Positions 30,757 through 62,987 of a stretch of 64,000 nucleotides of DNA are shown piece after piece. Made by a program: the position numbers and the translations under genes. This stretch comes from Alphaproteobacteria bacterium (GTDB lineage Bacteria > Pseudomonadota > Alphaproteobacteria > JAUXUR01). Location: NCBI GenBank assembly GCA_030680745.1, contig JAUXUR010000007.1:3159-67158 (forward strand), read 5' to 3'. The notes below the pieces were generated by a model that saw only the letters and a list, made by a program, of their open reading frames with translations, did no database searches and was not told the DNA's origin. Positions within the stretch are counted from its first letter, which is position 1; every line of letters starts with the position of its first letter.

Positions 30757-30921
30757 TAAATATTAATCAACGAGACAAAAATTTAATTTTAAACAAACCT
30801 ACAAATAACAGAAAATCTGATATACCCCTAAAAAATAAAATATAAAATTTATTGATTTAAGTGATTGAATATAATATTATCTCGTTATTATATATATATA
30901 TATTAAATAAGGGTTTTTATT

Positions 30922-33528
30922 GTGTTGAGAAAATTTCTTTTTATTTCAATTGTTTCTTGTCTTTTTTTTAAACCCATTCATGTTTTTGCAGCTGATTATG
31001 ATGAAGATGATACAGAGATAATGATGAATGGTGAAAATCCATTTGCCGATACTAGATTTTGTGGTTTTGAAAAATTCAAAGAATGGTTCAGTCTTAAAGA
31101 TAACCAGCGAAAAAAAATTGACGAAAAAAACGAAAAAAAATTTAAAAATGTTTTAGCATTATATTTGAATTATAAATTTAAAAATGAGCCAACTTTTGAT
31201 GAAGCTTTGAGGCTTTCTGTAGAGGGATCTCAAAATGCATGTCCCAAATCGATGGAGTTATTAGGTACATTAAAAGTAGAACAAGGTGATAATGCGTCTG
31301 AAGAAGAAAAGCAAAAATATTATAACGATGCTTTTTCATGGTATGTTATTTCATTTTGGATGCAAATAATAAAAAAAGTTAAATTAAATCAGATAATAAA
31401 AATACCGACAACAATTGTTTCAAAATTAGAAAACCTTGTTAAAAAGTCATGTTTTTGTAAAAAACGTATTCTTTGTTTTGAATATATAAAAAATTTTGAG
31501 GAAAAAAACCTTGGTAGTGTTTTGTTTTCTTTAGAAAGCATATCTAGCGCGTTCTTTGATACACGTTTTTTCAGTGTTGCTTATTATATAGGGACTTCTT
31601 TTTTGCATGCTTTTCCATGTGATCGTAAATTAACAATATTTACGATTAATTTATTAAACTGGAAGTTGTATTTAAGTGATAAAAGATTAAAAAGTAAAAG
31701 CGAAGAACTTATAAATCTTCTTGCTGCTCTTTTTTATAAAAATAAATTTTTGCATGAAAGTGCATATTGTTGGCGTAATCCTATTGAGCAAAATCATATT
31801 TCTTTATTAGCAAAATTAATTCTAAATGGGTTAAGAAATTCAGATCAGAAGGGAATAAAATTTAAAGAAATTGATAGAAACAAAATAGGATCAAGACTGT
31901 TTTGGAGCGTAAAATCATATAATAACAATGATAATAATAAATTCATGGTAAGTTCTATTCAAAATGGTGATATTAAATTTGATTCAAATGGAAAAAATAT
32001 AACAGAAAAAAATAAATATATTATTTTATCAGATTTGTACAGAGAGTTAAATACGCCAGAGTCATTGCATGAAATAGGTATGTGTATTTTAAAGGATAAG
32101 CTTTTATATTTAAACAATAAACTCATTCTGCCTGATGAAAAATATGAAAGCGCTGCAAATTTCTTTAGAAAATCATTATCTCACTCAATGTCTTCATGTA
32201 TCCTTGGGTTGCTAATTCAAAATGGTTTAGTTAAAAAAGATTTAAATGGTTTAGAGTTTTTAGAAGAACAACGATATGAAATAGCAGCAGATTTGTTTAG
32301 GCAATCAACATCAATACCTCAGTCTTTGTTTAGTCTTGGTCATTTGATTGAAAGGGGTGAAATTAAGAAGGATTTATATAACCAGGACATATCTGATGGA
32401 CAGCAATATGTAATTGCCGCAGATTTATTTAGGCAGTCAAGATCAGAGTCTATGTCCTTATTTTATCTTGGGTACTTAATTGAAGATGGCAAAGTTGATC
32501 AAGATTTAGATAACAATAATATTCCAGAAGGGAAACGAAATGAAATTGCTGCAAGTTTATATAGAAAATCAAAAACAAGCTCTGCATTAAACAGGTTAGC
32601 ATGTTTAATTTTTTGTAAGAAAACATCTGAAGATTTAGATGGAAATCTAATTATTTCGGATTCTCAACGTAATGAAATTGCACTTAAATTATTTTTGGAT
32701 TCAGATTCCGGTGATGCTTATTACAATCTTGCTATTGTTAAGCTTCTTTCACCATCAGGCGAATCACTTGAGGTTAAGAAAGAGGCTTTAACATTTTTAA
32801 TGAAAGCGGCGTTGGAGGGTATTGAAAATGCAGCTTCTTATTATGAAATTTTAAAAAATGAAATAGAAGAAGAACAAAATACTTTTGGTATATCTGATCA
32901 ATCCGTGTCGGAAATAAAAAAAGAAGATTCTATTTTAGATAATATGAGTGAAAATGAACGTCTACAAAATGAAGAAATAAACTTAGCTAATAATGATAGT
33001 GTTGATGATACTTATGAAGTTAATAGTGATTGTGATATTGTTAAATCATCTAATGTTATAGAGAACGCTGACGTAAAAGAAAAAATTGCTTTATCAACAG
33101 ATGAATCGTCTGAAGAATTAAGTATATTGAAACGAAAGGAACTTAAAGCGCTTAAAAAGAAGCAGCGTGAACAAAAGAAAAAAGATCTAGGTAATAAGTT
33201 TAAAAAACTTCTCCGCGGGAAGCTTTCAGAGCAAGAAAAAACTTCTTTTATCTCAAAACAAAAAATGAATATTGGTAACAAAGATATAAAAGTTACGTTC
33301 GATAAAAATGCGCAAAAGGAATGGATAGCTCTTGATGTTTTTAAACGAGATAAAGTATCCGAGCTCATCGCAGATATTAAAATAGGTGGAAAACGTGGAA
33401 AGCCTGAACAATTGGTAAATTCTGATGCATTTTCTAGACGGATTACAGGTAAACATAGGCTTATTTATCAAATAGAAAACAATGATAATATTAAAATTCT
33501 ATCTTGCCAAGGACATTATGACGATTAA
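30922..33528 (+). CDS. Secreted Sel1/TPR-like repeat protein with a C-terminal YoeB/Txe-family RNase toxin domain
   Basis: Signal peptide MLRKFLFISIVSCLFFKPIHVFA. Five or more ~36-aa repeats (EIAADLFRQS...LGHLIERGEIKKDLYN). K/R-rich linker. The last ~85 aa (KVTFDKNAQKEWIALDVFKRD...GGKRGKPEQL...FSRRITGKHRLIYQIENNDNIKILSCQGHYDD) align with E. coli YoeB, including Glu46, Arg65 and His83-Tyr84. Confidence 0.8.
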   Translation: MLRKFLFISIVSCLFFKPIHVFAADYDEDDTEIMMNGENPFADTRFCGFEKFKEWFSLKDNQRKKIDEKNEKKFKNVLALYLNYKFKNEPTFDEALRLSVEGSQNACPKSMELLGTLKVEQGDNASEEEKQKYYNDAFSWYVISFWMQIIKKVKLNQIIKIPTTIVSKLENLVKKSCFCKKRILCFEYIKNFEEKNLGSVLFSLESISSAFFDTRFFSVAYYIGTSFLHAFPCDRKLTIFTINLLNWKLYLSDKRLKSKSEELINLLAALFYKNKFLHESAYCWRNPIEQNHISLLAKLILNGLRNSDQKGIKFKEIDRNKIGSRLFWSVKSYNNNDNNKFMVSSIQNGDIKFDSNGKNITEKNKYIILSDLYRELNTPESLHEIGMCILKDKLLYLNNKLILPDEKYESAANFFRKSLSHSMSSCILGLLIQNGLVKKDLNGLEFLEEQRYEIAADLFRQSTSIPQSLFSLGHLIERGEIKKDLYNQDISDGQQYVIAADLFRQSRSESMSLFYLGYLIEDGKVDQDLDNNNIPEGKRNEIAASLYRKSKTSSALNRLACLIFCKKTSEDLDGNLIISDSQRNEIALKLFLDSDSGDAYYNLAIVKLLSPSGESLEVKKEALTFLMKAALEGIENAASYYEILKNEIEEEQNTFGISDQSVSEIKKEDSILDNMSENERLQNEEINLANNDSVDDTYEVNSDCDIVKSSNVIENADVKEKIALSTDESSEELSILKRKELKALKKKQREQKKKDLGNKFKKLLRGKLSEQEKTSFISKQKMNIGNKDIKVTFDKNAQKEWIALDVFKRDKVSELIADIKIGGKRGKPEQLVNSDAFSRRITGKHRLIYQIENNDNIKILSCQGHYDD

Positions 33529-33610: not shown

Positions 33611-34072
33611 TTACAAATTATAGATTTTCTCTGCATTTTTGTAGAATATTTTATGTTGTTCTTCTTCTGTAAAAACATTAAGTATTGTTTTAAATTTATC
33701 TACCAATTCATTGAAATTATAAAACAAACTATCAGGTGAAAAATTGCTACCAAACATACAACGATCGTGACCAAAGAATTTAATTGCTGAAACGATATAG
33801 GAAGTTAGAATACTCAATTCAGCTTGTTTTTGTAACCACTGGGTTTCTAATATAGGATTTCCTTGAAAGCCGAAGGCTTCTACATGTACTGATTTAGTAA
33901 TTTTTTGTTGTTGTATAAGTTTGGAGTAATCATTTCCTAGAAAATTTTTTTTCAGCTTATTATAATTACCACCCAAATATTCAAGAGTAGGTAGATTTGT
34001 TGTAAGCCATGGATAGTTGTTTTTTAAATCCCATAAATGCATATGGGTATCGATGATTTCGCCTTTATACAT
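33611..34072 (-). CDS. Amidohydrolase-2 family (TIM-barrel metal hydrolase) protein, unusually short (153 aa)
   Basis: N-terminal IIDTHMHLWD and C-terminal CMFGSNFSPD motifs, but total length is about half that of typical family members. Confidence 0.5.
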   Translation of the reverse strand: MYKGEIIDTHMHLWDLKNNYPWLTTNLPTLEYLGGNYNKLKKNFLGNDYSKLIQQQKITKSVHVEAFGFQGNPILETQWLQKQAELSILTSYIVSAIKFFGHDRCMFGSNFSPDSLFYNFNELVDKFKTILNVFTEEEQHKIFYKNAEKIYNL

Positions 34073-41342: not shown

Positions 41343-43457
41343 ATGTTAAAAAAAATCGCTATATATGCATTTTTTCTATTTTATGCATCCAGTAGTATAA
41401 ACGCTAATCCTATTTTTCAAAACAAACATTTTGATTTAAATTATTCGCAAAGCCTTGGATATCTAAAGTCATTTCTTGGAAATGATTTTGTAGAAATAAA
41501 ACAAGGATCTGAATCTGAAGACATAAAAAAAAACATACAAAATTTTTATGAAAAAGATTTCACAATGACAGATTACTTAGGAATAAGGAGCAATTCAAAT
41601 CATGAAAATATTACTCCAATTGTTGAAGCGCTTTTAGAAGAACAAAATTCACCAGATAGATATTTTATGTATCATGCTTCAAGTCCAATTGTTGGTTTGC
41701 TTTATGACATTTATTCTGAACTCAGACGACAAATAATGAATATTCAACGAGAAGACCTTATGCTGTGTCGCGGTACAGATGAAGCTTTTTTTGATATTGA
41801 GAATATCGCCGATTTTATTAATGATCAAAAAGTTAAGCAAAACGTAAAATCTTTCACAGACCTCGGTAATTATTCTGCCGATTATGCTGAAAAAGCGTTA
41901 TCCATGAATTTATTCTTGTTTGGAAATCATCATGTTGTATTTGACGATTCAATGGCTTTGTTTATGGAGGCAAGATCTGAGAGGAAGATTTTGCTCTCTA
42001 AATCATTGATAAAATTATTTACTTATTTTGGCATTGATATGTCACAACTATCAGAAATAAAGGATTTAATTTTAAAATTTGAAGCGCTTCCTTTATTAGA
42101 TCGTGGACGCTTGTTCCAATTTAGTTTTGCGCCCGATAATATCGATGAATTTGTTTATCTATCTAAATCATTAGGTGTTGGCGTGACTATAGATGGGTCC
42201 AAAGATTATGATATTAACAAAAATCAAGTGGCGCTTCTTATTAAAGCTATGCGTCATAATCCTGCTCAACTTGAAAAATTTTCAAAAAAAATATGTAAAA
42301 ACGATCATGAATCTTTAATCCAAATAAATAATCCTTTATTCGATTTAAATAAAATTCAAGGTAGGTTTATCTTACATCCAAAGCTTTTTTCAGAAAATAG
42401 CCCCTTGCAAGTTATATCTTATTGGCGCGGCCTCTCTCGTAATGCGCCAGAAGTGCAAGAATATAAAACAAACCTGAAAGTATTGGTGACTGATATCATT
42501 TCATTAATATTAAAATCGAGATTTACACCACCGCGAAAAACAATTCTCACAGAGAACGATGCATTAGACTTATTGTTAAAAAAAAGAAATATTGAATTAG
42601 AAAATGAAAATATTCCTATAAAGACAAATATTTCAGATCATTTATTATCTGCTTATATATGCTCTGGTGATCTAGATAAACTAATTTCCATCCTCAACAA
42701 TGAAAATCAAATTGATATTAATAAATCAATAATAGATATCAATGACTTAGAAGAAGAAACTGAACATTCCCCCTTATATCTTGCAGTCAAATATAATCAC
42801 CCTGAACTTGTTGATTTGCTATTAGCAAAAGGCGCACAAATAAAAGATGAGCCTTCCGCTGACCGCAATTTGCTAGGTTGGGCCAGTATTAACAATTATC
42901 CTCTTATTACGCAAAAATTGCTAAATTCTGGATGCAATCCTAATTCAAAATTTAGATATAGGTGTTTAGAAGAGCCACTTATTGAGCTTATTCAACAATA
43001 CGGGAGAAATGAAATTTTAGAAATTTTTATAAAACACGAAGATATTGCACTTGACAAAAAAAAATCCATAAATTTAATTAAATATATCATGGAAAATAAA
43101 CTAATAGATTTAGTAAAAGTTCTTTTTAAGAATGAAAAATTTTTTACTAATAATATGATGGATGAAGATTTTAAAATTAAAATTCTAAACATTGCTATCA
43201 AAATTGAAAACACAGAAATTCTTAACTTTTTACTAGATATTTTCAAACTTTCTTTTGATTCAGAACCTTCTGTTGAAAAACAACCGATCAATAAAGCAAT
43301 TGATACTCAAAACTTTTCCATTATCACCACATTAATCGAGCATGGAATAGATCTAAGAATAAAACATCCTTTATACGGAACCCCTTTGCAATACGCACGT
43401 AAAACTAAAAATAAACAAATTATTCAACTCATTGAACAACATGTCTCGACTCAATAG
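41343..43457 (+). CDS. Secreted ankyrin-repeat protein (704 aa)
   Basis: Signal peptide MLKKIAIYAFFLFYASSSINA. C-terminal ANK repeats (SPLYLAVKYNHPELVDLLLAKGAQI; GTPLQYARKTKNKQIIQLI). Confidence 0.75.
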   Translation: MLKKIAIYAFFLFYASSSINANPIFQNKHFDLNYSQSLGYLKSFLGNDFVEIKQGSESEDIKKNIQNFYEKDFTMTDYLGIRSNSNHENITPIVEALLEEQNSPDRYFMYHASSPIVGLLYDIYSELRRQIMNIQREDLMLCRGTDEAFFDIENIADFINDQKVKQNVKSFTDLGNYSADYAEKALSMNLFLFGNHHVVFDDSMALFMEARSERKILLSKSLIKLFTYFGIDMSQLSEIKDLILKFEALPLLDRGRLFQFSFAPDNIDEFVYLSKSLGVGVTIDGSKDYDINKNQVALLIKAMRHNPAQLEKFSKKICKNDHESLIQINNPLFDLNKIQGRFILHPKLFSENSPLQVISYWRGLSRNAPEVQEYKTNLKVLVTDIISLILKSRFTPPRKTILTENDALDLLLKKRNIELENENIPIKTNISDHLLSAYICSGDLDKLISILNNENQIDINKSIIDINDLEEETEHSPLYLAVKYNHPELVDLLLAKGAQIKDEPSADRNLLGWASINNYPLITQKLLNSGCNPNSKFRYRCLEEPLIELIQQYGRNEILEIFIKHEDIALDKKKSINLIKYIMENKLIDLVKVLFKNEKFFTNNMMDEDFKIKILNIAIKIENTEILNFLLDIFKLSFDSEPSVEKQPINKAIDTQNFSIITTLIEHGIDLRIKHPLYGTPLQYARKTKNKQIIQLIEQHVSTQ

Positions 43458-44000: not shown

Positions 44001-47000
44001 ATGATTAAAAATATTTCTTTTATCTTTTTATCTTTTTTTATATTTTTTTCTTCTGTTAATTGTTCAGAATGTACTATTGATGATGCTGTTAATGCATCAA
44101 TACCTGATAGGACAAATCCATGGAAACTGAATACTAATCAAGCAATTACTTTTAATGAATATTATATTTCAGGCAAAAACCTTGCTTGTGGTTTTAAAGC
44201 TTTTGGATACGATTCGCGGGAAGAAGCTATTGATGCAATGCTTAACGCCCTTAACGATAACGATACAAAATATGAGCGTCGTAATCGTAAAATGCGCGAA
44301 TATATTAAAAATGATTACGCAGAAAATATTTCTGTAGAAGAATATTTAAATAAAATTAAAAATATAAAGCATGAGCTTTCTTACAATGCAAATAAGTACT
44401 TTTTAGACCAAAACAAAAAAATTCAAAAAATTGATCCTAACTTACCAATTTTATACACCCTTATCGATGCTTTTGCCGTATTAAATAATAAAAACTTATA
44501 TATTTATAGCGCTGCTCCTGGTGAAAAAATCCTTTTTATAAGTCATGCTTTTTCAAATGATTCTTCCAATGTAAATCAAAATTTATCTCTTTTACATAAA
44601 AATCAACATTACAATAGATTAGTTGAAACAGGACATGTGAATACAAATATACGTTCACAAAATGATGAAGATAAACATCTAACAGAATTAAGAAATTCTC
44701 TTCTTGAAGAAGGAAGATTTAGAGAAGAGCAACTCTCATTAAATATAAGTTTTGATAGTTTTTCTTCAGAACCATTGGAAGAAGAAATATTTTTTTCTTT
44801 AGAATCACCAAAATCACCAGAAGAAGAAATAACTTTTGAAGATTTTTCTTCAAGTTTTCTACCTACAACACCTTGTTACGATTTAGAATTCACTGAAGAT
44901 GAGCCACACAATCAAGTATCACAGCCTGCACAAACGGAAATAAGTTTTACTGCTTCTCAAATAAAATATTTTGTTTTTGGCAAAGCAAAATACCTTCCAG
45001 GACTTAATGCTTATGAATCTTTGATTGCTGCATATAAAAATGCGGCAAAACTTTTTGATGATCAAAATGCTCTTTTTTGTCACATTCAAATTTATCTTAA
45101 AAAAAACTTTCTTCACGAAAATAATTCCATTGATTCTATGTTAAAAAAATTAGACACATTAATTAATAAAAAAGGTTCACAAAGTGTAATAAAAAAATAT
45201 AGACATTATGCAAAAATTTATAAAGGTCAAATTTACGTTAAACAAAAAGAACTAAATAAAGCTTGGGAAATATTTGATAATTTAAAAACAAAAAATGAGT
45301 GTTACACAAAAACATATTTTTTAGATATGTCGGAAATGATTCTTCTTTATGAATATACACCTAATGGAATGACACGGGAGAATGCTGTTGCATTGGCTTG
45401 GACATTATTTAATAAAACAATTGGAAACGGAAAGACTCAAAAAAAACAAACATCAAATTCAACACGTCAAAATGATACTTTTCATCCGGATTATTACAAA
45501 AGTAAAGAAGCAAACAAAAGACGTACAAATATTCGTGACAAGGTTCGTAGGCAAGGCAATGTGAATAGAGTTCGACCAAGAAATAGATCCACTCAAGACG
45601 GTTCTGCGTCAAATGTTTCTGCGCCAAATGTTTCCGCGCAGCCATTAGATCAAATTGAAACAATGGAAAATTCTATTGTGGGACGTAAAAGAACAAAAAA
45701 TTCTTCTACAATAAAATCTCAACCGCCTCGAAAAATATTACGTATTATGACGAGTAATACAGACACTAATACGGACACAGAAAGTGATACTGATATAGAT
45801 GTCGATACTAAAATGCAAGACCAAGTTGAAAATCCTGAAAATATTTCTGATTTATATTCATTGCATGATGATTCTTTAAACAGAAATCATAATGATGATT
45901 TTTTAGATACAGTAGATGACATTAACGAAAAAAATAAAAAATTGCGTGATCTAATTTTAAAAGGAAAGTATTTTTCTTTTAAAAAAAAGGCTGACGAAGC
46001 AATAAAGTACTTTTCGATGGTTTTATATTCTAATGATGATGAAAATCAAGAATCCATTTATTATGAACAAGCATATATTGGCTTAGGTAATGTTTATTGT
46101 TATGAAAAACAAGATATAGATACAGCAATTAAAATTTATCTGGAAGGTATTCTTAAATGTCCTTCATCAGATCTCTATTGTTCTTTAGGTGATGCTTATC
46201 ATTATGAAAAAAAAGATACAAATAAAGCAATTGAAATCTATCAAGAAGGGATTAATAGATGCCCCTCAGCAGATCTCTACCGTGGTTTAGGCAATGCTTA
46301 TAGATATGAAAAGCAAGAGGTTCATACAGCAATTGAAATCTATCAAGAGGGGATTGATAAATACCCCTCAGCAGTTCTCTATCGTTCTTTAGGTGATACT
46401 TATAGATATGAAAAGCACGAAGTTCATGCAGCAATTGAAATCTATCAGGAAGGTATTTTTAAATGTCCTTCAGCAGATCTCTATCGTTCTTTAGGTGATG
46501 CTTATTATTATGAAAAAAAAGATACAAATAAAGCAATTAAAATCTATCAAAAAGGAATTGATAAATGCCCCTCAGCAGATCTCTACTGTGGTTTAGGTGA
46601 TGCTTATAGATATGAAAAAAAAGATACAAATACAGCAATTGAAATCTATCAAGAAGGGATTGATAGATGCCCCTCAGCAGATCTCTATCGTTCTTTAGGG
46701 GATTCTTATTATTATGAAGAAAAAGATACAAATAAAGCAATTTCAATGTATCAAAAAGGGATTGATAACTACCCTTCAGCAGATCTTTATCGTGCTTTAG
46801 GTGATGCTTATAGACATGAAAAGAAAAATACAAATAAAGCAATTGCAATCTACCAAGAAGGTATTGAAAAATGTCCCTCAGCAGAACTTTATCGTGCTTT
46901 AGGAGATGCTTATAAATATGAAAAAAAAGACGTTTACAAAGCAATTTCAATTTATCAAAAAGGGATTAAAAAATGTTCTTCATCAGATCTTTATGATGCT

Positions 47001-47201
47001 TTAGGAGATACCTATAGTTTTAATTTCGCTAAACATGAACGAGATATTAATAAAAGTAAAGCATACCAACAAAAAGCGTTAGATGCTTATCAGATGGCTC
47101 TTAGTTTTAACAATCATAAAATTAACGATAAAATTAAAATAAAAATTGATTATATAAAAAAATGGTTTTCTTCTTTTGAAACTAGAAGAAGAATTGAGTA
47201 A
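44001..47201 (+). CDS. Secreted TPR-like tandem-repeat protein (1066 aa)
   Basis: Signal peptide MIKNISFIFLSFFIFFSSVNC. About ten consecutive 40-aa repeats (AIEIYQEGIDKCPSADLYRSLGDAYRYEKKDTNK). Ser/Thr/Asp-rich low-complexity linker. Confidence 0.8.
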   Translation: MIKNISFIFLSFFIFFSSVNCSECTIDDAVNASIPDRTNPWKLNTNQAITFNEYYISGKNLACGFKAFGYDSREEAIDAMLNALNDNDTKYERRNRKMREYIKNDYAENISVEEYLNKIKNIKHELSYNANKYFLDQNKKIQKIDPNLPILYTLIDAFAVLNNKNLYIYSAAPGEKILFISHAFSNDSSNVNQNLSLLHKNQHYNRLVETGHVNTNIRSQNDEDKHLTELRNSLLEEGRFREEQLSLNISFDSFSSEPLEEEIFFSLESPKSPEEEITFEDFSSSFLPTTPCYDLEFTEDEPHNQVSQPAQTEISFTASQIKYFVFGKAKYLPGLNAYESLIAAYKNAAKLFDDQNALFCHIQIYLKKNFLHENNSIDSMLKKLDTLINKKGSQSVIKKYRHYAKIYKGQIYVKQKELNKAWEIFDNLKTKNECYTKTYFLDMSEMILLYEYTPNGMTRENAVALAWTLFNKTIGNGKTQKKQTSNSTRQNDTFHPDYYKSKEANKRRTNIRDKVRRQGNVNRVRPRNRSTQDGSASNVSAPNVSAQPLDQIETMENSIVGRKRTKNSSTIKSQPPRKILRIMTSNTDTNTDTESDTDIDVDTKMQDQVENPENISDLYSLHDDSLNRNHNDDFLDTVDDINEKNKKLRDLILKGKYFSFKKKADEAIKYFSMVLYSNDDENQESIYYEQAYIGLGNVYCYEKQDIDTAIKIYLEGILKCPSSDLYCSLGDAYHYEKKDTNKAIEIYQEGINRCPSADLYRGLGNAYRYEKQEVHTAIEIYQEGIDKYPSAVLYRSLGDTYRYEKHEVHAAIEIYQEGIFKCPSADLYRSLGDAYYYEKKDTNKAIKIYQKGIDKCPSADLYCGLGDAYRYEKKDTNTAIEIYQEGIDRCPSADLYRSLGDSYYYEEKDTNKAISMYQKGIDNYPSADLYRALGDAYRHEKKNTNKAIAIYQEGIEKCPSAELYRALGDAYKYEKKDVYKAISIYQKGIKKCSSSDLYDALGDTYSFNFAKHERDINKSKAYQQKALDAYQMALSFNNHKINDKIKIKIDYIKKWFSSFETRRRIE
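46060..47010 (+). repeat. Tandem ~120-bp coding repeats (about eight near-identical units) inside the TPR-like gene
   Basis: Recurring gcaattgaaatctatcaagaagggattgata...cccctcagcagatctctatcgttctttaggtgatgcttatagatatgaaaa. Confidence 0.85.
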
Positions 47202-49737: not shown

Positions 49738-50016
49738 CAATATATAATGTTTTCGCTTTTAGTTAAGAGTAGGAATGAGGCGTGAAGTGTAGTCTTTTCC
49801 TACATGAGAAACGAATAACGCCCTATTAACAAAAATGGAAAATACTATATAAAAAAGAGGCCGCGAACGGCCCAAGTTTAGGGAGGAAACGCCCAAGAAG
49901 AAAACAACACTGGCCGGGCAGCCAATAAATGTGTTGTAAACATAATATGACATAACCGTTGACCATTTGCAAGTTAAAAATTATATTTTTTGCAAAATTA
50001 TGGATGGATAAAATTT

Positions 50017-51635: not shown

Positions 51636-52865
51636 ATGTTGAAAAAACTAATTATAACTGTATTTTTTTGTGTTTCTTTTTTTTATGGAACATCAAAAGT
51701 AATTGCAGCAATACTTACTTCTCCGGAAGTACAATTTGAAAGACTTGTTCAATTAAAAAAAGATAGAGCTCCTGACGCACCCTTCCCAGAACTTTTGCCG
51801 CAATTTATAGAAAACTCTACGGCAATAGCAGAAATTTTAGATGGTGCATACCTAGAAACATTCAATAAAATTTACGATCACGTATTAGCGTTTTTTGGCG
51901 AAAATGGTGAAAATTTAACATTGGCTCATTTTAATATCGTTCATTTATATTATGCGAAGATTGTAACTGAATCACAATTAAACTCTATTATAGATGAAAA
52001 ATTTCTATTCGATAACTTAAAAGAAGCATTAAATTTTATATTAAATAAAGATTATGATAATTATGGAATTTTTTACAATGGAATTGGTTCAGAACATATA
52101 AAGCCTACTATGTATGTTGAGTTTAATTTATATCCTTATACAATTGTTAGTGAATCAGGTTACTTATCTTTGAAAGTTTTGAATGAATCATTAGGGCAAG
52201 ATATGCGTCTGTGTGGTTTTCCTTTGTTCCGTTCTAAATTTGATGGATATTTAAATCAAACATCTATGAGTTGCTTGACACATGACTGGGCGCATGCATC
52301 ACCAGTAGCTAATTTTGTTGATATGTGCAATGAAGATGGAGTTGATAAATATAAAGCGCTTCTTGGACTGATCAATTTAAATCAAGATCAGAAAATACAG
52401 AATCTAGATCATTTTTGTTTGTTTTTTCTTGAGCATGAAAACTATCGTTTTTATAGAGGTGAGTTTAACGATTTAGAAACTGATTGCAATTTTGTTCTTA
52501 ATAATTTATTTGATATCATTTTACCAATACTTCATAATTATTCTGCAACTGAAAATGGTATCTCCGCTATCGAGGTATTTCAAAAATTTGCTCCAAGCAA
52601 AATAGAACCATTTTTTTTGGATATGGGCGATGTAATGACGATTCAAATGACTGGAGCATTGGGGAAGAATTTTAATTTGTTTCAGGTTTTAAATTCTCGT
52701 TTTGGAATAGGATATAATATTCTTTTTGATATTCAATCAATGCTTAAAGATTCTGATATTGATTTCCAAATCTGGAAAGATGATCAATTTAATGCTGAGG
52801 AAATGAGCGCTATCATCACAAAAATATTCAGTGACTTTAAGGAACGATATAAGGATAAGTTTTAG
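51636..52865 (+). CDS. Secreted hypothetical protein (409 aa)
   Basis: Signal peptide MLKKLIITVFFCVSFFYGTSKVIAA; no domain recognised. Confidence 0.5.
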   Translation: MLKKLIITVFFCVSFFYGTSKVIAAILTSPEVQFERLVQLKKDRAPDAPFPELLPQFIENSTAIAEILDGAYLETFNKIYDHVLAFFGENGENLTLAHFNIVHLYYAKIVTESQLNSIIDEKFLFDNLKEALNFILNKDYDNYGIFYNGIGSEHIKPTMYVEFNLYPYTIVSESGYLSLKVLNESLGQDMRLCGFPLFRSKFDGYLNQTSMSCLTHDWAHASPVANFVDMCNEDGVDKYKALLGLINLNQDQKIQNLDHFCLFFLEHENYRFYRGEFNDLETDCNFVLNNLFDIILPILHNYSATENGISAIEVFQKFAPSKIEPFFLDMGDVMTIQMTGALGKNFNLFQVLNSRFGIGYNILFDIQSMLKDSDIDFQIWKDDQFNAEEMSAIITKIFSDFKERYKDKF

Positions 52866-52982
52866 TATATTTTAGTCGAGTCACCCAGGGCATTTCAGCC
52901 CTAGGTACTCACAGAACCCTACGTGAAACTCTCGCTTCATACGGCCCATCACTAACGATACTTTGTATAGTGATGAGTTAAT

Positions 52983-60722: not shown

Positions 60723-62987
60723 CTAAAATTTTAATTCGCAAAAAATTATAACATCAGAAGAGGGAGGTTGAGCCATTTCTTTCTCCATTTTTTTAAGCAC
60801 CTTCATCTGGATCAGGATTTTCAATAATCCACCAATTTTGATTTTGGGGTATATCTCGCCCATTGGATCGAATTCAAAATAATCTTCCCATCCTGAACTC
60901 TCTTTTTCATTTTTTGTTTTAAGAATACCTCTTCCGATAAGGTAGACCATAAAATCTTCTATGAAAATAGGTCTTTCTTTTTCAGAGTTTCTAACATATT
61001 CATTAAGGTTTTTACGAATTATTTCATTTTCTTTTGAATTCTCAGAATTTTCATTTCTCTTTTCATATAATAGATCTGTGTATATTTGTCGTTTTTTAAA
61101 ATCCTCATCATCTTCAATATGATTCATAAGGAATTTTATAAGATAATCGGGATTAAATTTCGCATAAAACACTTCTAATGCATTACCGAGGCTTCCTTGA
61201 AAGGGATCACCTTTTCCAATTCCAATTTTCTCTTTGAAATTTTCAAAATAACCCGTTAATCCCAATTCATCTTTAAGTTTTTCAAAATATACGCTTAAAA
61301 TATGAACGTTTTGGAGAGATTTACCCGGCATGATTGCACATTTAAAAAGAAGATTCTTTTCACGTGCCAAAAGACTATATATTTTATCGCTGAGACCATC
61401 ACCTTTTAGTTCTGTTAGCAAGGAAAGCAAGATAGCTTCGACGCCTTCTTTTTGACCTGTGGGGCATTGTAAAAGAGCATAGGTGAGTTGGAACATTAAG
61501 ACATGGCGCGCATCTGAATCAAGATTTGGATCTGCCATACGTGAAATAATATAAGAAAGATTCCGTTGAAGTTCCAGAATAGATTCTTCATACATCTGCC
61601 ATTCACTTTTTTCATTTTCTTCTAAAGGCAATCCCCACATCGTTTTAAGAAATCCATTAAGGCTTGGAAAAATATAAAGTTCAATTTTTTGCTTATTGGT
61701 TAATTCTGGGTAAGAATCTTTGAAATCATTGGAAAGCATTTCATAAGAAATTGATTTGCTTGTATACTTTTTTTCTTCTTCGCTACGATTTTCTGGGTGT
61801 ATGGTTTTAATTCTTTCTTCTTCAACATCCTCTAGAATCAAAAGATCTAGTAGATTCTTCCAATTTTTTATAAATTGATCAGCATCCCAACCCAAATCAG
61901 GCACATCTTGCATGCGATAATCTTTAATTGTTTTTCGATTTATACTTATTTCTGCTGTATCCAACTTTTGGTATAAATCTATTTGTGTAATTGGAACCAT
62001 GTGATACTCCATGGGGAGTACAATTCTATCTCCAAAAATCCGCTGCAACTCTTCTTCACCTAAAGTATTTCCGATTCCTCTATGTTGAAGGGGATTGTTG
62101 TAGAGGTTTATAAATCCAATTGTATTGCGTAAATCGGATAAAGAGGCTGGTAGATGGATCAGTTCATTGTGGTTAAGACTTAGAAAAGTCAATTTTTTTA
62201 AATTCCCAAAAGAGTCGTGCAGATCGTTGAGTTTATTGTCACAAAGATCGAGGTAGTTCAAATTTATCAAATTGCCCAATGATTCGAGTGCATCCTTAAG
62301 TTGGTTTATGGAAAGATTTAGAAATATCAATTTTTCCAATTGATCAAAAGATTTGGGTAGATTTGTCAGTTTATTATTTTGGAAAGAGGCACTTGTCAAA
62401 TTAATGAGTTTGCCAAATAAATCGGGTAAATTTTTAAGTTGATTCTGTTTTAAAATGAGCTCTGTCAAATTACCTAAATCGCAAAAAGATTCAGGAAGAT
62501 CTTCTAGTTCATTATTTTCAAAAGAGAGGAGCTTCAAATTTTGCAATTTGCCAAAAGATTCTGGTAGTTTTGTAAGTTTATTATGACTAAAATTGAGACT
62601 ATTCAAATTTTGTAAATTACAAAAAGATTCAGGTAAATTTGAGATTAGATTATTACAAATAGATAGGTTATTCAGATTAGTCAAATTTCCAAATGAGTTG
62701 GGCAAATTTGTGATGCCGTTTGAAGAAAGTTGGAGGTTCGTCACCCATGTTAAATCACACAATTTTTCCATTGTTTCAGGTGAAATTTGGATGTTAAAAA
62801 TTTTTAATTCACCACTTAAAATTGTGTGATTTAGTGTCTCAAAATTTTGATTTGGATTATCACATTGCAAGTTTTTGATAAATTCATTTATGCGTAACTC
62901 TTTTTCACTCTCAGTTAAATCTGCTGCAAATATGGGCGCCAAGAACACAAAAAATAATATCGAAAAATAAAAAAGAAATGTTTTCAT
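60723..62987 (-). CDS. Secreted leucine-rich-repeat protein (754 aa; ~12 LRRs plus a ~430-aa C-terminal domain of unknown function)
   Basis: Signal peptide MKTFLFYFSILFFVFLAPIFA. 23-aa LRRs (LQNLNSLNFSHNKLTKLPESFGK and similar). Confidence 0.8.
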   Translation of the reverse strand: MKTFLFYFSILFFVFLAPIFAADLTESEKELRINEFIKNLQCDNPNQNFETLNHTILSGELKIFNIQISPETMEKLCDLTWVTNLQLSSNGITNLPNSFGNLTNLNNLSICNNLISNLPESFCNLQNLNSLNFSHNKLTKLPESFGKLQNLKLLSFENNELEDLPESFCDLGNLTELILKQNQLKNLPDLFGKLINLTSASFQNNKLTNLPKSFDQLEKLIFLNLSINQLKDALESLGNLINLNYLDLCDNKLNDLHDSFGNLKKLTFLSLNHNELIHLPASLSDLRNTIGFINLYNNPLQHRGIGNTLGEEELQRIFGDRIVLPMEYHMVPITQIDLYQKLDTAEISINRKTIKDYRMQDVPDLGWDADQFIKNWKNLLDLLILEDVEEERIKTIHPENRSEEEKKYTSKSISYEMLSNDFKDSYPELTNKQKIELYIFPSLNGFLKTMWGLPLEENEKSEWQMYEESILELQRNLSYIISRMADPNLDSDARHVLMFQLTYALLQCPTGQKEGVEAILLSLLTELKGDGLSDKIYSLLAREKNLLFKCAIMPGKSLQNVHILSVYFEKLKDELGLTGYFENFKEKIGIGKGDPFQGSLGNALEVFYAKFNPDYLIKFLMNHIEDDEDFKKRQIYTDLLYEKRNENSENSKENEIIRKNLNEYVRNSEKERPIFIEDFMVYLIGRGILKTKNEKESSGWEDYFEFDPMGEIYPKIKIGGLLKILIQMKVLKKMEKEMAQPPSSDVIIFCELKF

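Follow-up and report, generated by a model that had tools for sequence, protein, structure and literature searches.

Organization of the Gene and Its C-Terminal YoeB Domain

Here, a 64-kb stretch of alphaproteobacterial DNA (referred to below, at its full length, as the window) was analyzed with regard to one open reading frame (ORF) at 30922..33528 on the forward strand, which starts with GTG and encodes a product of 868 aa (MDP1723178.1) of a metagenome-assembled genome (MAG) of the Alphaproteobacteria. The original prediction, made from the letters of the DNA, had described this product as a secreted protein with five or more Sel1-like repeats and a complete YoeB/Txe toxin domain at its C-terminus, encoded with no antitoxin gene nearby. 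The ORF is present as described, and the last ~81 residues of its product match the Pfam family YoeB_toxin (PF06769); the score is 38.8 bits with the whole protein as query and 43.4 bits with the last 102 aa (E = 1e-9 to 4e-11), above the gathering score of 27 bits that defines membership in this family. The NCBIfam model for the Txe/YoeB equivalog (TIGR02116) gave 42.3 bits with the full protein and 45.9 bits with the last 102 aa and did not reach its cut-off of 51.8 bits, a level that implies function equal to that of the characterized toxins. Judged by these profile scores, the C-terminal domain belongs to the YoeB family and is not a curated NCBIfam equivalog. Searches with phmmer against the sequences of the Protein Data Bank (PDB) retrieved YoeB of Staphylococcus aureus (6l8e, E = 8e-7) and of Escherichia coli (2a6q, E = 3e-6), with 31-35% identity to the solved YoeBs, and tblastn found free-standing Txe/YoeB genes on Fusobacterium plasmids at 44-49% identity to the domain.

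The fold predicted for this domain is in line with its sequence. An AlphaFold2 (AF2) model of residues 725-868, calculated from a 43-sequence alignment, showed a predicted local distance difference test (pLDDT) score of >90 across the YoeB domain and contained strand 1, helix 1, helix 2 and the beta-sheet of the YoeB/RelE-type fold. In Foldseek it was superposed on E. coli YoeB (2a6r_C) with a target-normalized template modeling score (TMt) of 0.86 and a root mean square deviation (rmsd) of 1.3 Å over 84 columns, and the first 13 PDB fold matches were all YoeB/RelK-type toxins. In the alignment with 2a6q, residues E829, R846, H865 and Y866 take the places of Glu46, Arg65, His83 and Tyr84 of E. 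coli YoeB (numbered on its 84-residue chain), and hence the statement that the four catalytic residues are in place was borne out, as was the assignment of the domain by profile and by superposition. R846, Y849, H865 and Y866 are invariant in 18/18 family members. Relative to canonical YoeBs, the module has shortened loops behind helix 2 and between strands 2 and 3, and the ending GHY[DE]D is common to the family and to a subgroup of free-standing YoeBs. On the grounds of modeled fold and catalytic residues, the YoeB module is intact, and ribosome-dependent mRNA endonuclease activity is predicted for it.

The remainder of the protein was characterized by pattern, alignment and modeling, using alignments of full-length proteins (A1), of the YoeB module (A2) and of the broad family (A3) as well as an N-domain profile (A5). 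The N-terminus, MLRKFLFISIVSCLFFKPIHVFA followed by ADY, has a positive n-region (charge +2), a hydrophobic core (top 10-residue Kyte-Doolittle hydrophobicity of 2.73) and a cleavage-type site between VFA and A, and thus resembles a Sec signal peptide, as had been proposed, by a heuristic three-part pattern that is likewise seen in 17/19 family members; this segment is conserved in A1. In the full-length AF2 model (mean pLDDT 68.8), the N-domain at residues ~60-335 is all-helical and predicted with moderate confidence (pLDDT about 60-85); it carries the motifs FCGFEKFKEW, NACPKSMxLLG, NDAFSWYVISF and DRNKIGS and found no match in Pfam. It is followed, at residues ~336-652, by about six helix-pair repeats with a period of ~44 aa and pLDDT of 85-96, whose consensus RYExAAxLYRKSxxPxxLxxLxxLIxxGxIxKDxxGxxI includes an extra DxxGxxI loop and whose number differs between homologues. 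The part of the original prediction that concerned these repeats stands as far as the fold goes: the model shows an alpha/alpha solenoid of the Sel1-like repeat (SLR) type, and the best PDB matches of the repeat body in Foldseek were HcpC (1ouv, TMt 0.65), a Sel1 protein of Oxalobacter (6ork, TMt 0.74) and SEL1L (9og0). By contrast, neither Pfam Sel1 (PF08238) nor the tetratricopeptide repeat (TPR) models matched the window protein even at E <= 1, and the relatives P0017, P0058 and P0097 gave sub-threshold Pfam Sel1 matches of 20-25 bits, where 30.7 bits would be required. The term Sel1-like is therefore used here for the modeled structural resemblance of the repeat body and not for membership by hidden Markov model. 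Between the repeats and the toxin domain lie a linker of net charge -14, with pLDDT of 22-46 and with variable length and poor conservation in A1, and a conserved K/R-rich helix (residues ~729-765; net charge +13 over residues 729-787). In the C-terminal model this stretch is a long helix with pLDDT of 82-88 and is not confidently packed on the YoeB domain (predicted template modeling score, pTM, of 0.55; pLDDT 38-51 for residues 730-790 in the full-length model). The features are compiled in Table 1.

Table 1. Features of the 868-aa protein and its gene; positions are those of the window.
Feature	Residues	Position	Strand	Basis
Shine-Dalgarno-like AAGGG		30909..30913	+	read from sequence; GTG start 8 nt downstream
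Signal-peptide-like N-terminus, Sec type	1-23	30922..30990	+	MLRK, FLFISIVSCLFF, KPIHVFA followed by AD; heuristic
Family-specific all-helical N-domain	24-335	30991..31926	+	conserved in alignments A1, A3 and A5
Helix-pair repeats and capping helix pair, Sel1-like alpha-solenoid	336-652	31927..32877	+	AF2, Foldseek
Acidic, variable, disordered linker	653-728	32878..33105	+	low pLDDT, poor conservation, charge count
K/R-rich helix LKRKELKALKKKQREQKKKDLGNKFKKLLRG and short connector	729-787	33106..33282	+	conserved in the family; modeled helix
Complete YoeB/Txe-type RNase domain, end HYDD	788-868	33283..33525	+	Pfam, PDB sequence matches, Foldseek
Stop codon TAA		33526..33528	+	read from sequence

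The GTG start and the translated N-terminus are supported by the comparison with a 93%-identical relative (locus L007), since this relative keeps TAAGGA at the Shine-Dalgarno site and has TTG at the equivalent start position. An (AT)n tract upstream of the gene, pointed out in the original prediction, is indeed present as (AT)7 at 30890-30903, between a promoter-like region and the ribosome-binding site, but is missing from L007; it was judged to be a simple repeat specific to the strain, and a role in regulation or phase variation as a conserved element was rejected. A scan for promoters and terminators yielded counts no higher than chance in AT-rich DNA. An artefact of assembly or annotation was ruled out because the architecture is conserved across the family.

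Distribution, Copy Number and Selection in the Family

A search with the whole protein returned five full-length or partial homologues of 41-91% identity, with PF06769 in every complete one. A profile built from the last 103 residues gave 651 matches among 1.84 billion representative proteins. Of these, proteins that are 500-1359 aa long and matched at their C-terminus (P0009-P0014, P0016, P0017, P0023, P0054, P0058, P0071, P0097, P0121 and P0126) outrank the canonical YoeBs of 85-90 aa, which begin at ~62 bits. The whole layout, signal peptide included, is shared by no fewer than 16 clusters formed at 50% identity, in the order signal peptide, N-domain (family motifs FGFxxLKxW, NGCPxSMxWLG and AFSWYxLSF), repeats of ~44 aa, capping helices, a linker that is acidic or rich in Ser, a stretch rich in K/R and a YoeB domain that usually ends in GHYDD. 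Outside the invariant catalytic positions the members are 25-45% identical. All full-length members obtained have a YoeB end, the members having been found via the YoeB profile; scans with N-domain patterns returned only YoeB-ended genes or a contig-end fragment, and of 268 pattern matches in a scan of metagenome contigs with these patterns none was confirmed. In a neighbor-joining tree of the YoeB domain, 17/18 fusion sequences fell into one pure clade, which would suggest a single origin of the fusion, but strict monophyly was recovered in 0/100 bootstrap replicates.

Two carriers have names, Candidatus Odyssella thessalonicensis (WP_010302372.1) and Candidatus Amoebophilus sp. (MHB9147667.1), both obligate amoeba endosymbionts and of different phyla (lifestyle according to PMC3482391); the others are MAGs of Alphaproteobacteria or Pseudomonadota. 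The family is thus distributed mainly around symbionts of protists. Where copies could be counted, there are two to four or more per genome: three loci in GCA_030696155.1 which, together with P0012 (assigned by its accession series), amount to four proteins, and a tandem pair of 77% identity in Odyssella. The MAG of the window probably has three copies, MDP1723178.1, P0002 (MDP1723333.1) and P0013 (MDP1724146.1), as judged only from the proximity of their accessions. In Odyssella (locus L005, AEWF01000006.1, 6001-12403), the tandem copies encode 927 and 933 aa, and since the 62-aa ORF between them is a fragment of a 291-aa signal-peptide gene located 3' of the second copy, the duplicated unit took in the downstream gene; another Sel1 protein is encoded just past the pair. 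The Amoebophilus member (locus L009, JBTSIJ010000033.1, 5001-14080) is a protein of 1359 aa with a lipobox-like LLQSC and an extra N-terminal region, preceded by a Sel1/leucine-rich repeat (LRR) protein and adjoining an IS1 transposase and a large Mob_Pre/Toprim protein; these surroundings fit horizontal transfer and hint at carriage by a mobile element. Among the plasmids and phages searched, no full-length relative was found, the only hits being the free-standing Txe/YoeB genes of Fusobacterium plasmids, and for the window gene a mobile-element reading was accordingly rejected.

Comparison with the L007 gene gave dN/dS ratios of 0.62 for the whole gene, 1.18 for the acidic linker and 0.06 for the YoeB module, the last being based on 4 synonymous changes and 1 non-synonymous change. 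Moreover, mean column identity was 77% in the YoeB module (A2) as compared to 60% over the full length (A1). Small as the counts are, they agree with the alignments, and the YoeB module is under the strongest constraint within a protein that evolves fast.

Antitoxin Searches and Genomic Surroundings

The claim that no antitoxin is encoded nearby held in all searches made. The intergenic gaps flanking the gene are 165, 82 and 290 bp long and thus too short to hold an antitoxin gene. Approximate queries for YefM, Phd, Axe and RelB found nothing better than E = 0.1 by phmmer among all 886 six-frame segments of the window, and none of the 43 small ORFs that the window has outside long genes matched a Phd/YefM, RelB, ribbon-helix-helix (RHH) or helix-turn-helix (HTH) antitoxin family in Pfam; small ORFs matched instead SSB, TatA, Flp pilin and similar families. 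The full window protein itself contains no Phd/YefM, RHH or HTH domain at E <= 1 in Pfam, and PADLOC reported no defense-system match. Furthermore, in seven contexts (the window, L001, L005, L006, L007, L009 and L011) there is no common neighbor, either upstream or downstream, that could represent a cognate immunity gene, and no antitoxin-type Pfam family adjoins the gene. Neighbors of the family genes were also considered as hidden paralogues or immunity genes, and only the tandem duplicate of Odyssella proved to be related.

A toxin-antitoxin (TA) system of type II comprises a small (~85 aa), single-domain cytoplasmic toxin and an adjacent, co-transcribed antitoxin (Phd/YefM, PF02604, or other). 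Here, the protein is 868 aa long, has several domains and a signal-peptide-like N-terminus, and at the loci examined an antitoxin of this kind does not adjoin the gene. Because of its size, its multidomain build and the lacking antitoxin, it is operationally not a type II TA toxin. Nor does it correspond to a fused single-gene TA unit, as no antitoxin or DNA-binding domain was found N-terminal to YoeB at E <= 1.

The window is chromosomal, with ~30% G+C and genes for UvrA, GyrA, MurD, MsrA and P-II, and the family gene sits amid housekeeping genes and in no defense island. GyrA has a deep alphaproteobacterial placement, the closest named sequences being Rhodospirillales-like at ~65% identity. 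The window is dense in signal-peptide-like, eukaryote-like proteins, namely two Sel1, ankyrin, TPR and LRR proteins and a class-3 lipase, an effector-rich gene content typical of endosymbionts of protists or animals. Large signal-peptide-like proteins are encoded at 7448-9430 (-), 41343-43457 (+), 44001-47201 (+), 60723-62987 (-), 16127-17956 (-) and 51636-52865 (+); these six ORFs comprise class-3 lipase, ankyrin-repeat, TPR and LRR proteins and two proteins with no Pfam match. The two Sel1 proteins are tandem paralogues at 1855-4413 (-) and 4718-7270 (-), 63% identical, of ~850 aa, signal-peptide-like and with Pfam Sel1 scores of 56-57 bits. Both share a conserved C-terminal segment of ~70 aa (…IKWSQFEKLICGLMKKGDFLKPAGGSKINIKLG…IPEHRKAASLCPGRIKDARELL). 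A HicA-like identity of this segment was unsupported, as Pfam at E <= 10, phmmer against the PDB and phmmer with an approximate E. coli HicA sequence were all negative, and the pair may represent another effector with an unrecognized C-terminal module.

The gene downstream of the YoeB-tipped ORF, at 33611-34072 (-), had been described as a convergent amidohydrolase. It is convergent and matches Amidohydro_2, but only the last 70 positions of this family after an HxH-like start, and its product of 153 aa is a remnant, probably of a decayed gene. The same slot at L007 (3674-5347) is occupied by a 307-aa signal-peptide protein ending in …NNSDCGHYV…, which by its sequence might be a CE-clan/Ulp1-like cysteine-protease motif, and by an MsrB gene. 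In addition, Rfam recognized a group II catalytic intron domain at 52875-52949 (-) with 47.6 bits (gathering 40), directly after ORF 51636-52865, and a suhB/mmgR small RNA at 49844-49909 (-) with 45.4 bits (gathering 41), which is consistent with alphaproteobacterial origin.

Comparison With Known Toxins and Repeat Proteins

The domain, its predicted fold, the four catalytic residues and the GHY[DE]D ending of a subgroup connect the module to the YoeB/Txe toxins of the YefM-YoeB and Axe-Txe systems (PF06769). In those systems the toxin is a cytoplasmic protein of ~85 aa with a partner, whereas here the module forms the C-terminus of a signal-peptide-bearing protein of 868 aa, has two shorter loops and scores under the NCBIfam equivalog cut-off, and neither a YefM/Phd/Axe partner nor an operon is present. 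[quoted passage not shown] Those fusions are cytoplasmic and carry the DNA-binding domain of an antitoxin; in contrast, the protein described here has no such domain and combines its toxin module with a signal peptide and a Sel1-like solenoid.

Toxin-tipped exported repeat proteins of intracellular bacteria, typically without immunity genes, were described by Zhang, de Souza, Anantharaman, Iyer and Aravind (2012; PMC3482391), who read them as host-directed and listed Amoebophilus, Waddlia, Legionella, Wolbachia and Odyssella as carriers. YoeB is unmentioned in that survey, and its Tox-RelE is linked to RHS, HINT and Imm54 and has one polymorphic-toxin case, in Paenibacillus (PMC3482391). As compared to the proteins of that survey, the present family is distinguished by a conserved N-domain of its own and by a YoeB tail that is fixed, with no alternative tails among the members recovered. 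In a survey of BECR-fold proteins from 2026, the RelE-like group is predominantly intracellular and contrasted with exported colicin-like RNases, and a few YoeB-annotated toxins are among the predicted cargo of extracellular contractile injection systems (eCIS). Full-text searches on YoeB in connection with Sel1, with amoebae or endosymbionts or with polymorphic toxins turned up no description of this family. The original prediction had regarded it as not described, which holds, in the literature searched, for a YoeB family of this layout and needs to be qualified in three respects: proteins of the general kind are known (PMC3482391), the toxin Txp40 has a YoeB-like region by fold search, and the proteins already bear the automatic NCBI label "YoeB family toxin".

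Txp40, a 40-kDa insecticidal protein of Xenorhabdus nematophila (7xbj), matches the YoeB module with its residues 313-365 at E = 0.08 by sequence, and Foldseek aligned its chain B at E = 2.5e-5 over 92 columns with 24% identity and an rmsd of 3.5 Å. The similarity is weak, and the N-terminal region of Txp40 is unrelated and lacks Sel1 repeats; Txp40 may nonetheless be a structural precedent for a YoeB-like toxin acting against eukaryotes. An analogue in a functional sense is the Pseudomonas aeruginosa RNase Ribocin (RbcN), which carries a Sec signal, has no identified delivery route, reaches the cytoplasm of Caenorhabditis elegans and blocks translation (PMC13189344). It differs in its fold, which is unrelated to RelE1, in its target, which is helix 69 of the 25S/28S rRNA and not A-site mRNA, and in being a small single-domain protein (PMC13189344). 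With regard to the repeat body, the best structural match is to exported Sel1-like solenoids such as Helicobacter HcpC, which has no enzymatic toxin module; the repeats of ~44 aa with their DxxGxxI loop differ from those of HcpC and similar Sel1 proteins in that they escape the Pfam Sel1 model. Legionella LpnE and EnhC are likewise Sel1-repeat proteins with a signal peptide and without an enzymatic toxin module.

Proposed Role and Alternative Explanations

We favor, at a probability of about 0.5, the reading of this protein as a Sec-exported, host-directed and mRNA-cleaving effector of protist-associated intracellular bacteria, where export past the inner membrane, RNase activity, host target and linker cleavage are what we infer. 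By way of its Sec signal peptide, the protein would leave the bacterial cytoplasm unfolded, and we propose that an antitoxin would be unneeded because the toxin would thus never fold beside the ribosomes of its producer. The Sel1-like alpha-solenoid would serve as a binding or delivery scaffold, joined to the YoeB-type domain by the disordered acidic linker and the conserved basic helix. Either the whole protein or a C-terminal fragment, possibly freed at the disordered linker, would reach the cytoplasm of the eukaryotic host, where the YoeB module would enter vacant ribosomal A sites and cleave mRNA, so that host translation would be damped or reshaped. The feasibility of such an action is supported by the cleavage of mRNA by RelE on 80S ribosomes whose A site is vacant (PMC3632111), by the lethality of a YoeB-GFP fusion to Arabidopsis (PMC4430920) and by Ribocin as an example of an RNase with a signal peptide that enters host cytoplasm while no secretion system dedicated to it has been identified (PMC13189344). 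An exported effector, as already proposed in the original prediction in preference to a self-addiction module, fits the occurrence in at least 16 clusters, among them amoeba symbionts of two phyla, the multiple copies per genome, the seven contexts without a common neighbor and the accompanying eukaryote-like repeat proteins. The secretion part of that proposal was overstated, as a Sec signal takes a protein just to the periplasm, and its target, a host or a competitor, is putative.

Several points weigh against this explanation. Export, RNase activity and host delivery are predicted, and no device for translocation across the outer membrane or a host membrane is linked to the gene. The signal-peptide calls follow a heuristic three-part pattern, and the dN/dS value of the YoeB module rests on five substitutions. 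The Glu46 equivalent, kept in 14/18 family members, is Lys in 4/18. With its N-terminal extension of ~790 residues, the module may fail to fit the ribosomal A site, unless it is cut free or the linker has sufficient length. The symbiont lifestyle of the organism in the window is suggested by its gene content, and GyrA places it as a deep alphaproteobacterial MAG. Finally, the antitoxin searches covered 64 kb of the genome, and barnase exemplifies a secreted RNase that can depend on an unlinked inhibitor.

The layout of a Sec signal, long repeats and a C-terminal toxin is also that of polymorphic toxins, and a secretion determinant at the N-terminus (heuristic) and a toxin at the C-terminus are both found here; the protein could be an interbacterial weapon that delivers a YoeB RNase into competitors, with an immunity protein encoded elsewhere or unrecognizable. 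The native target of YoeB is the bacterial ribosome, Tox-RelE is listed with Sec export by Zhang et al. (PMC3482391), and Odyssella keeps many immunity genes, which is unusual for an endosymbiont, and probably competes with conspecifics (PMC3482391). We nevertheless regard such a role as doubtful, since an adjacent immunity gene and a conserved neighbor are missing in the seven contexts and Pfam reported none of the trafficking and processing modules RHS, FilH, HINT, VENN, LXG and MafBN. It is somewhat more doubtful still that the YoeB-like module has lost its nuclease function and has been exapted for binding of RNA, ribosomes or protein, or for a structural purpose, on a periplasmic or surface-exposed Sel1 scaffold. 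The score under the equivalog cut-off, the Glu46-to-Lys replacement in four members together with the variable position of Lys44, and the two shortened loops would agree with this, and an inactive domain would permit the antitoxin to be missing; some periplasmic Sel1 proteins, e.g., Legionella EnhC, work inside the envelope. However, four residues of the module (R846, Y849, H865 and Y866) are invariant across otherwise divergent proteins, the window protein and its close relatives retain all four catalytic residues, and purifying selection is strongest on the YoeB module. Moreover, the Glu-to-Lys change need not abolish activity, because RelE works without the Glu/His pair.

A self-acting single-gene TA or defense module, with the toxin inhibited in cis (e.g., by the basic helix) or sequestered outside the cytoplasm until a phage or stress trigger, would take advantage of the conserved helix directly N-terminal of the YoeB domain. 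This is improbable in view of the lack of confident packing of that helix on the domain, of the negative searches for Phd/YefM, RHH and HTH domains and for defense systems, and of the position of the gene amid housekeeping genes; in addition, a conserved signal peptide and a Sel1 solenoid of 600 residues would be unexpected in a cytoplasmic TA or defense toxin. The least probable explanation is an extracellular or periplasmic scavenging RNase of the barnase type, without a specific target cell. Ribosome-independent activity of YoeB is weak, the conserved repeat scaffold, the basic helix and several paralogues per genome would be hard to explain, and intracellular symbionts have little need of such an enzyme, despite the fact that a signal peptide (by heuristic) is present and that YoeB cuts RNA in vitro without ribosomes (PMC11980606). 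A variant of host-directed action, which we consider very improbable, is the addiction of the host to its symbiont: a stable exported YoeB on host ribosomes would be held in check by a labile, separately encoded inhibitor supplied by the living symbiont. Such addiction has been hypothesized for a Paracaedibacter-like symbiont of Bodo saltans (PMC8163844); for the inhibitor half, there is no specific support. If it were true, a protist that lost its symbiont would die of mRNA cleavage, which would amount to trans-kingdom post-segregational killing.

Significance of the Family

The interpretation as an exported, host-directed effector is plausible, strengthened by the comparative data and unproven, and it is directly testable because Ca. 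Odyssella thessalonicensis has two copies. As to annotation, the label "type II toxin-antitoxin system YoeB family toxin" is misleading for these proteins of 650-1360 aa. In the usual view, YoeB and RelE toxins are strictly intracellular and regulate the producing cell under the guard of an antitoxin, and this family would alter that view. If the favored reading is true, a TA toxin has been turned into a trans-kingdom effector by losing its antitoxin and gaining a signal peptide and a Sel1 scaffold, and has multiplied and spread among unrelated amoeba symbionts. Ribosome-dependent mRNA cleavage would then join the means by which symbionts may control their protist hosts.

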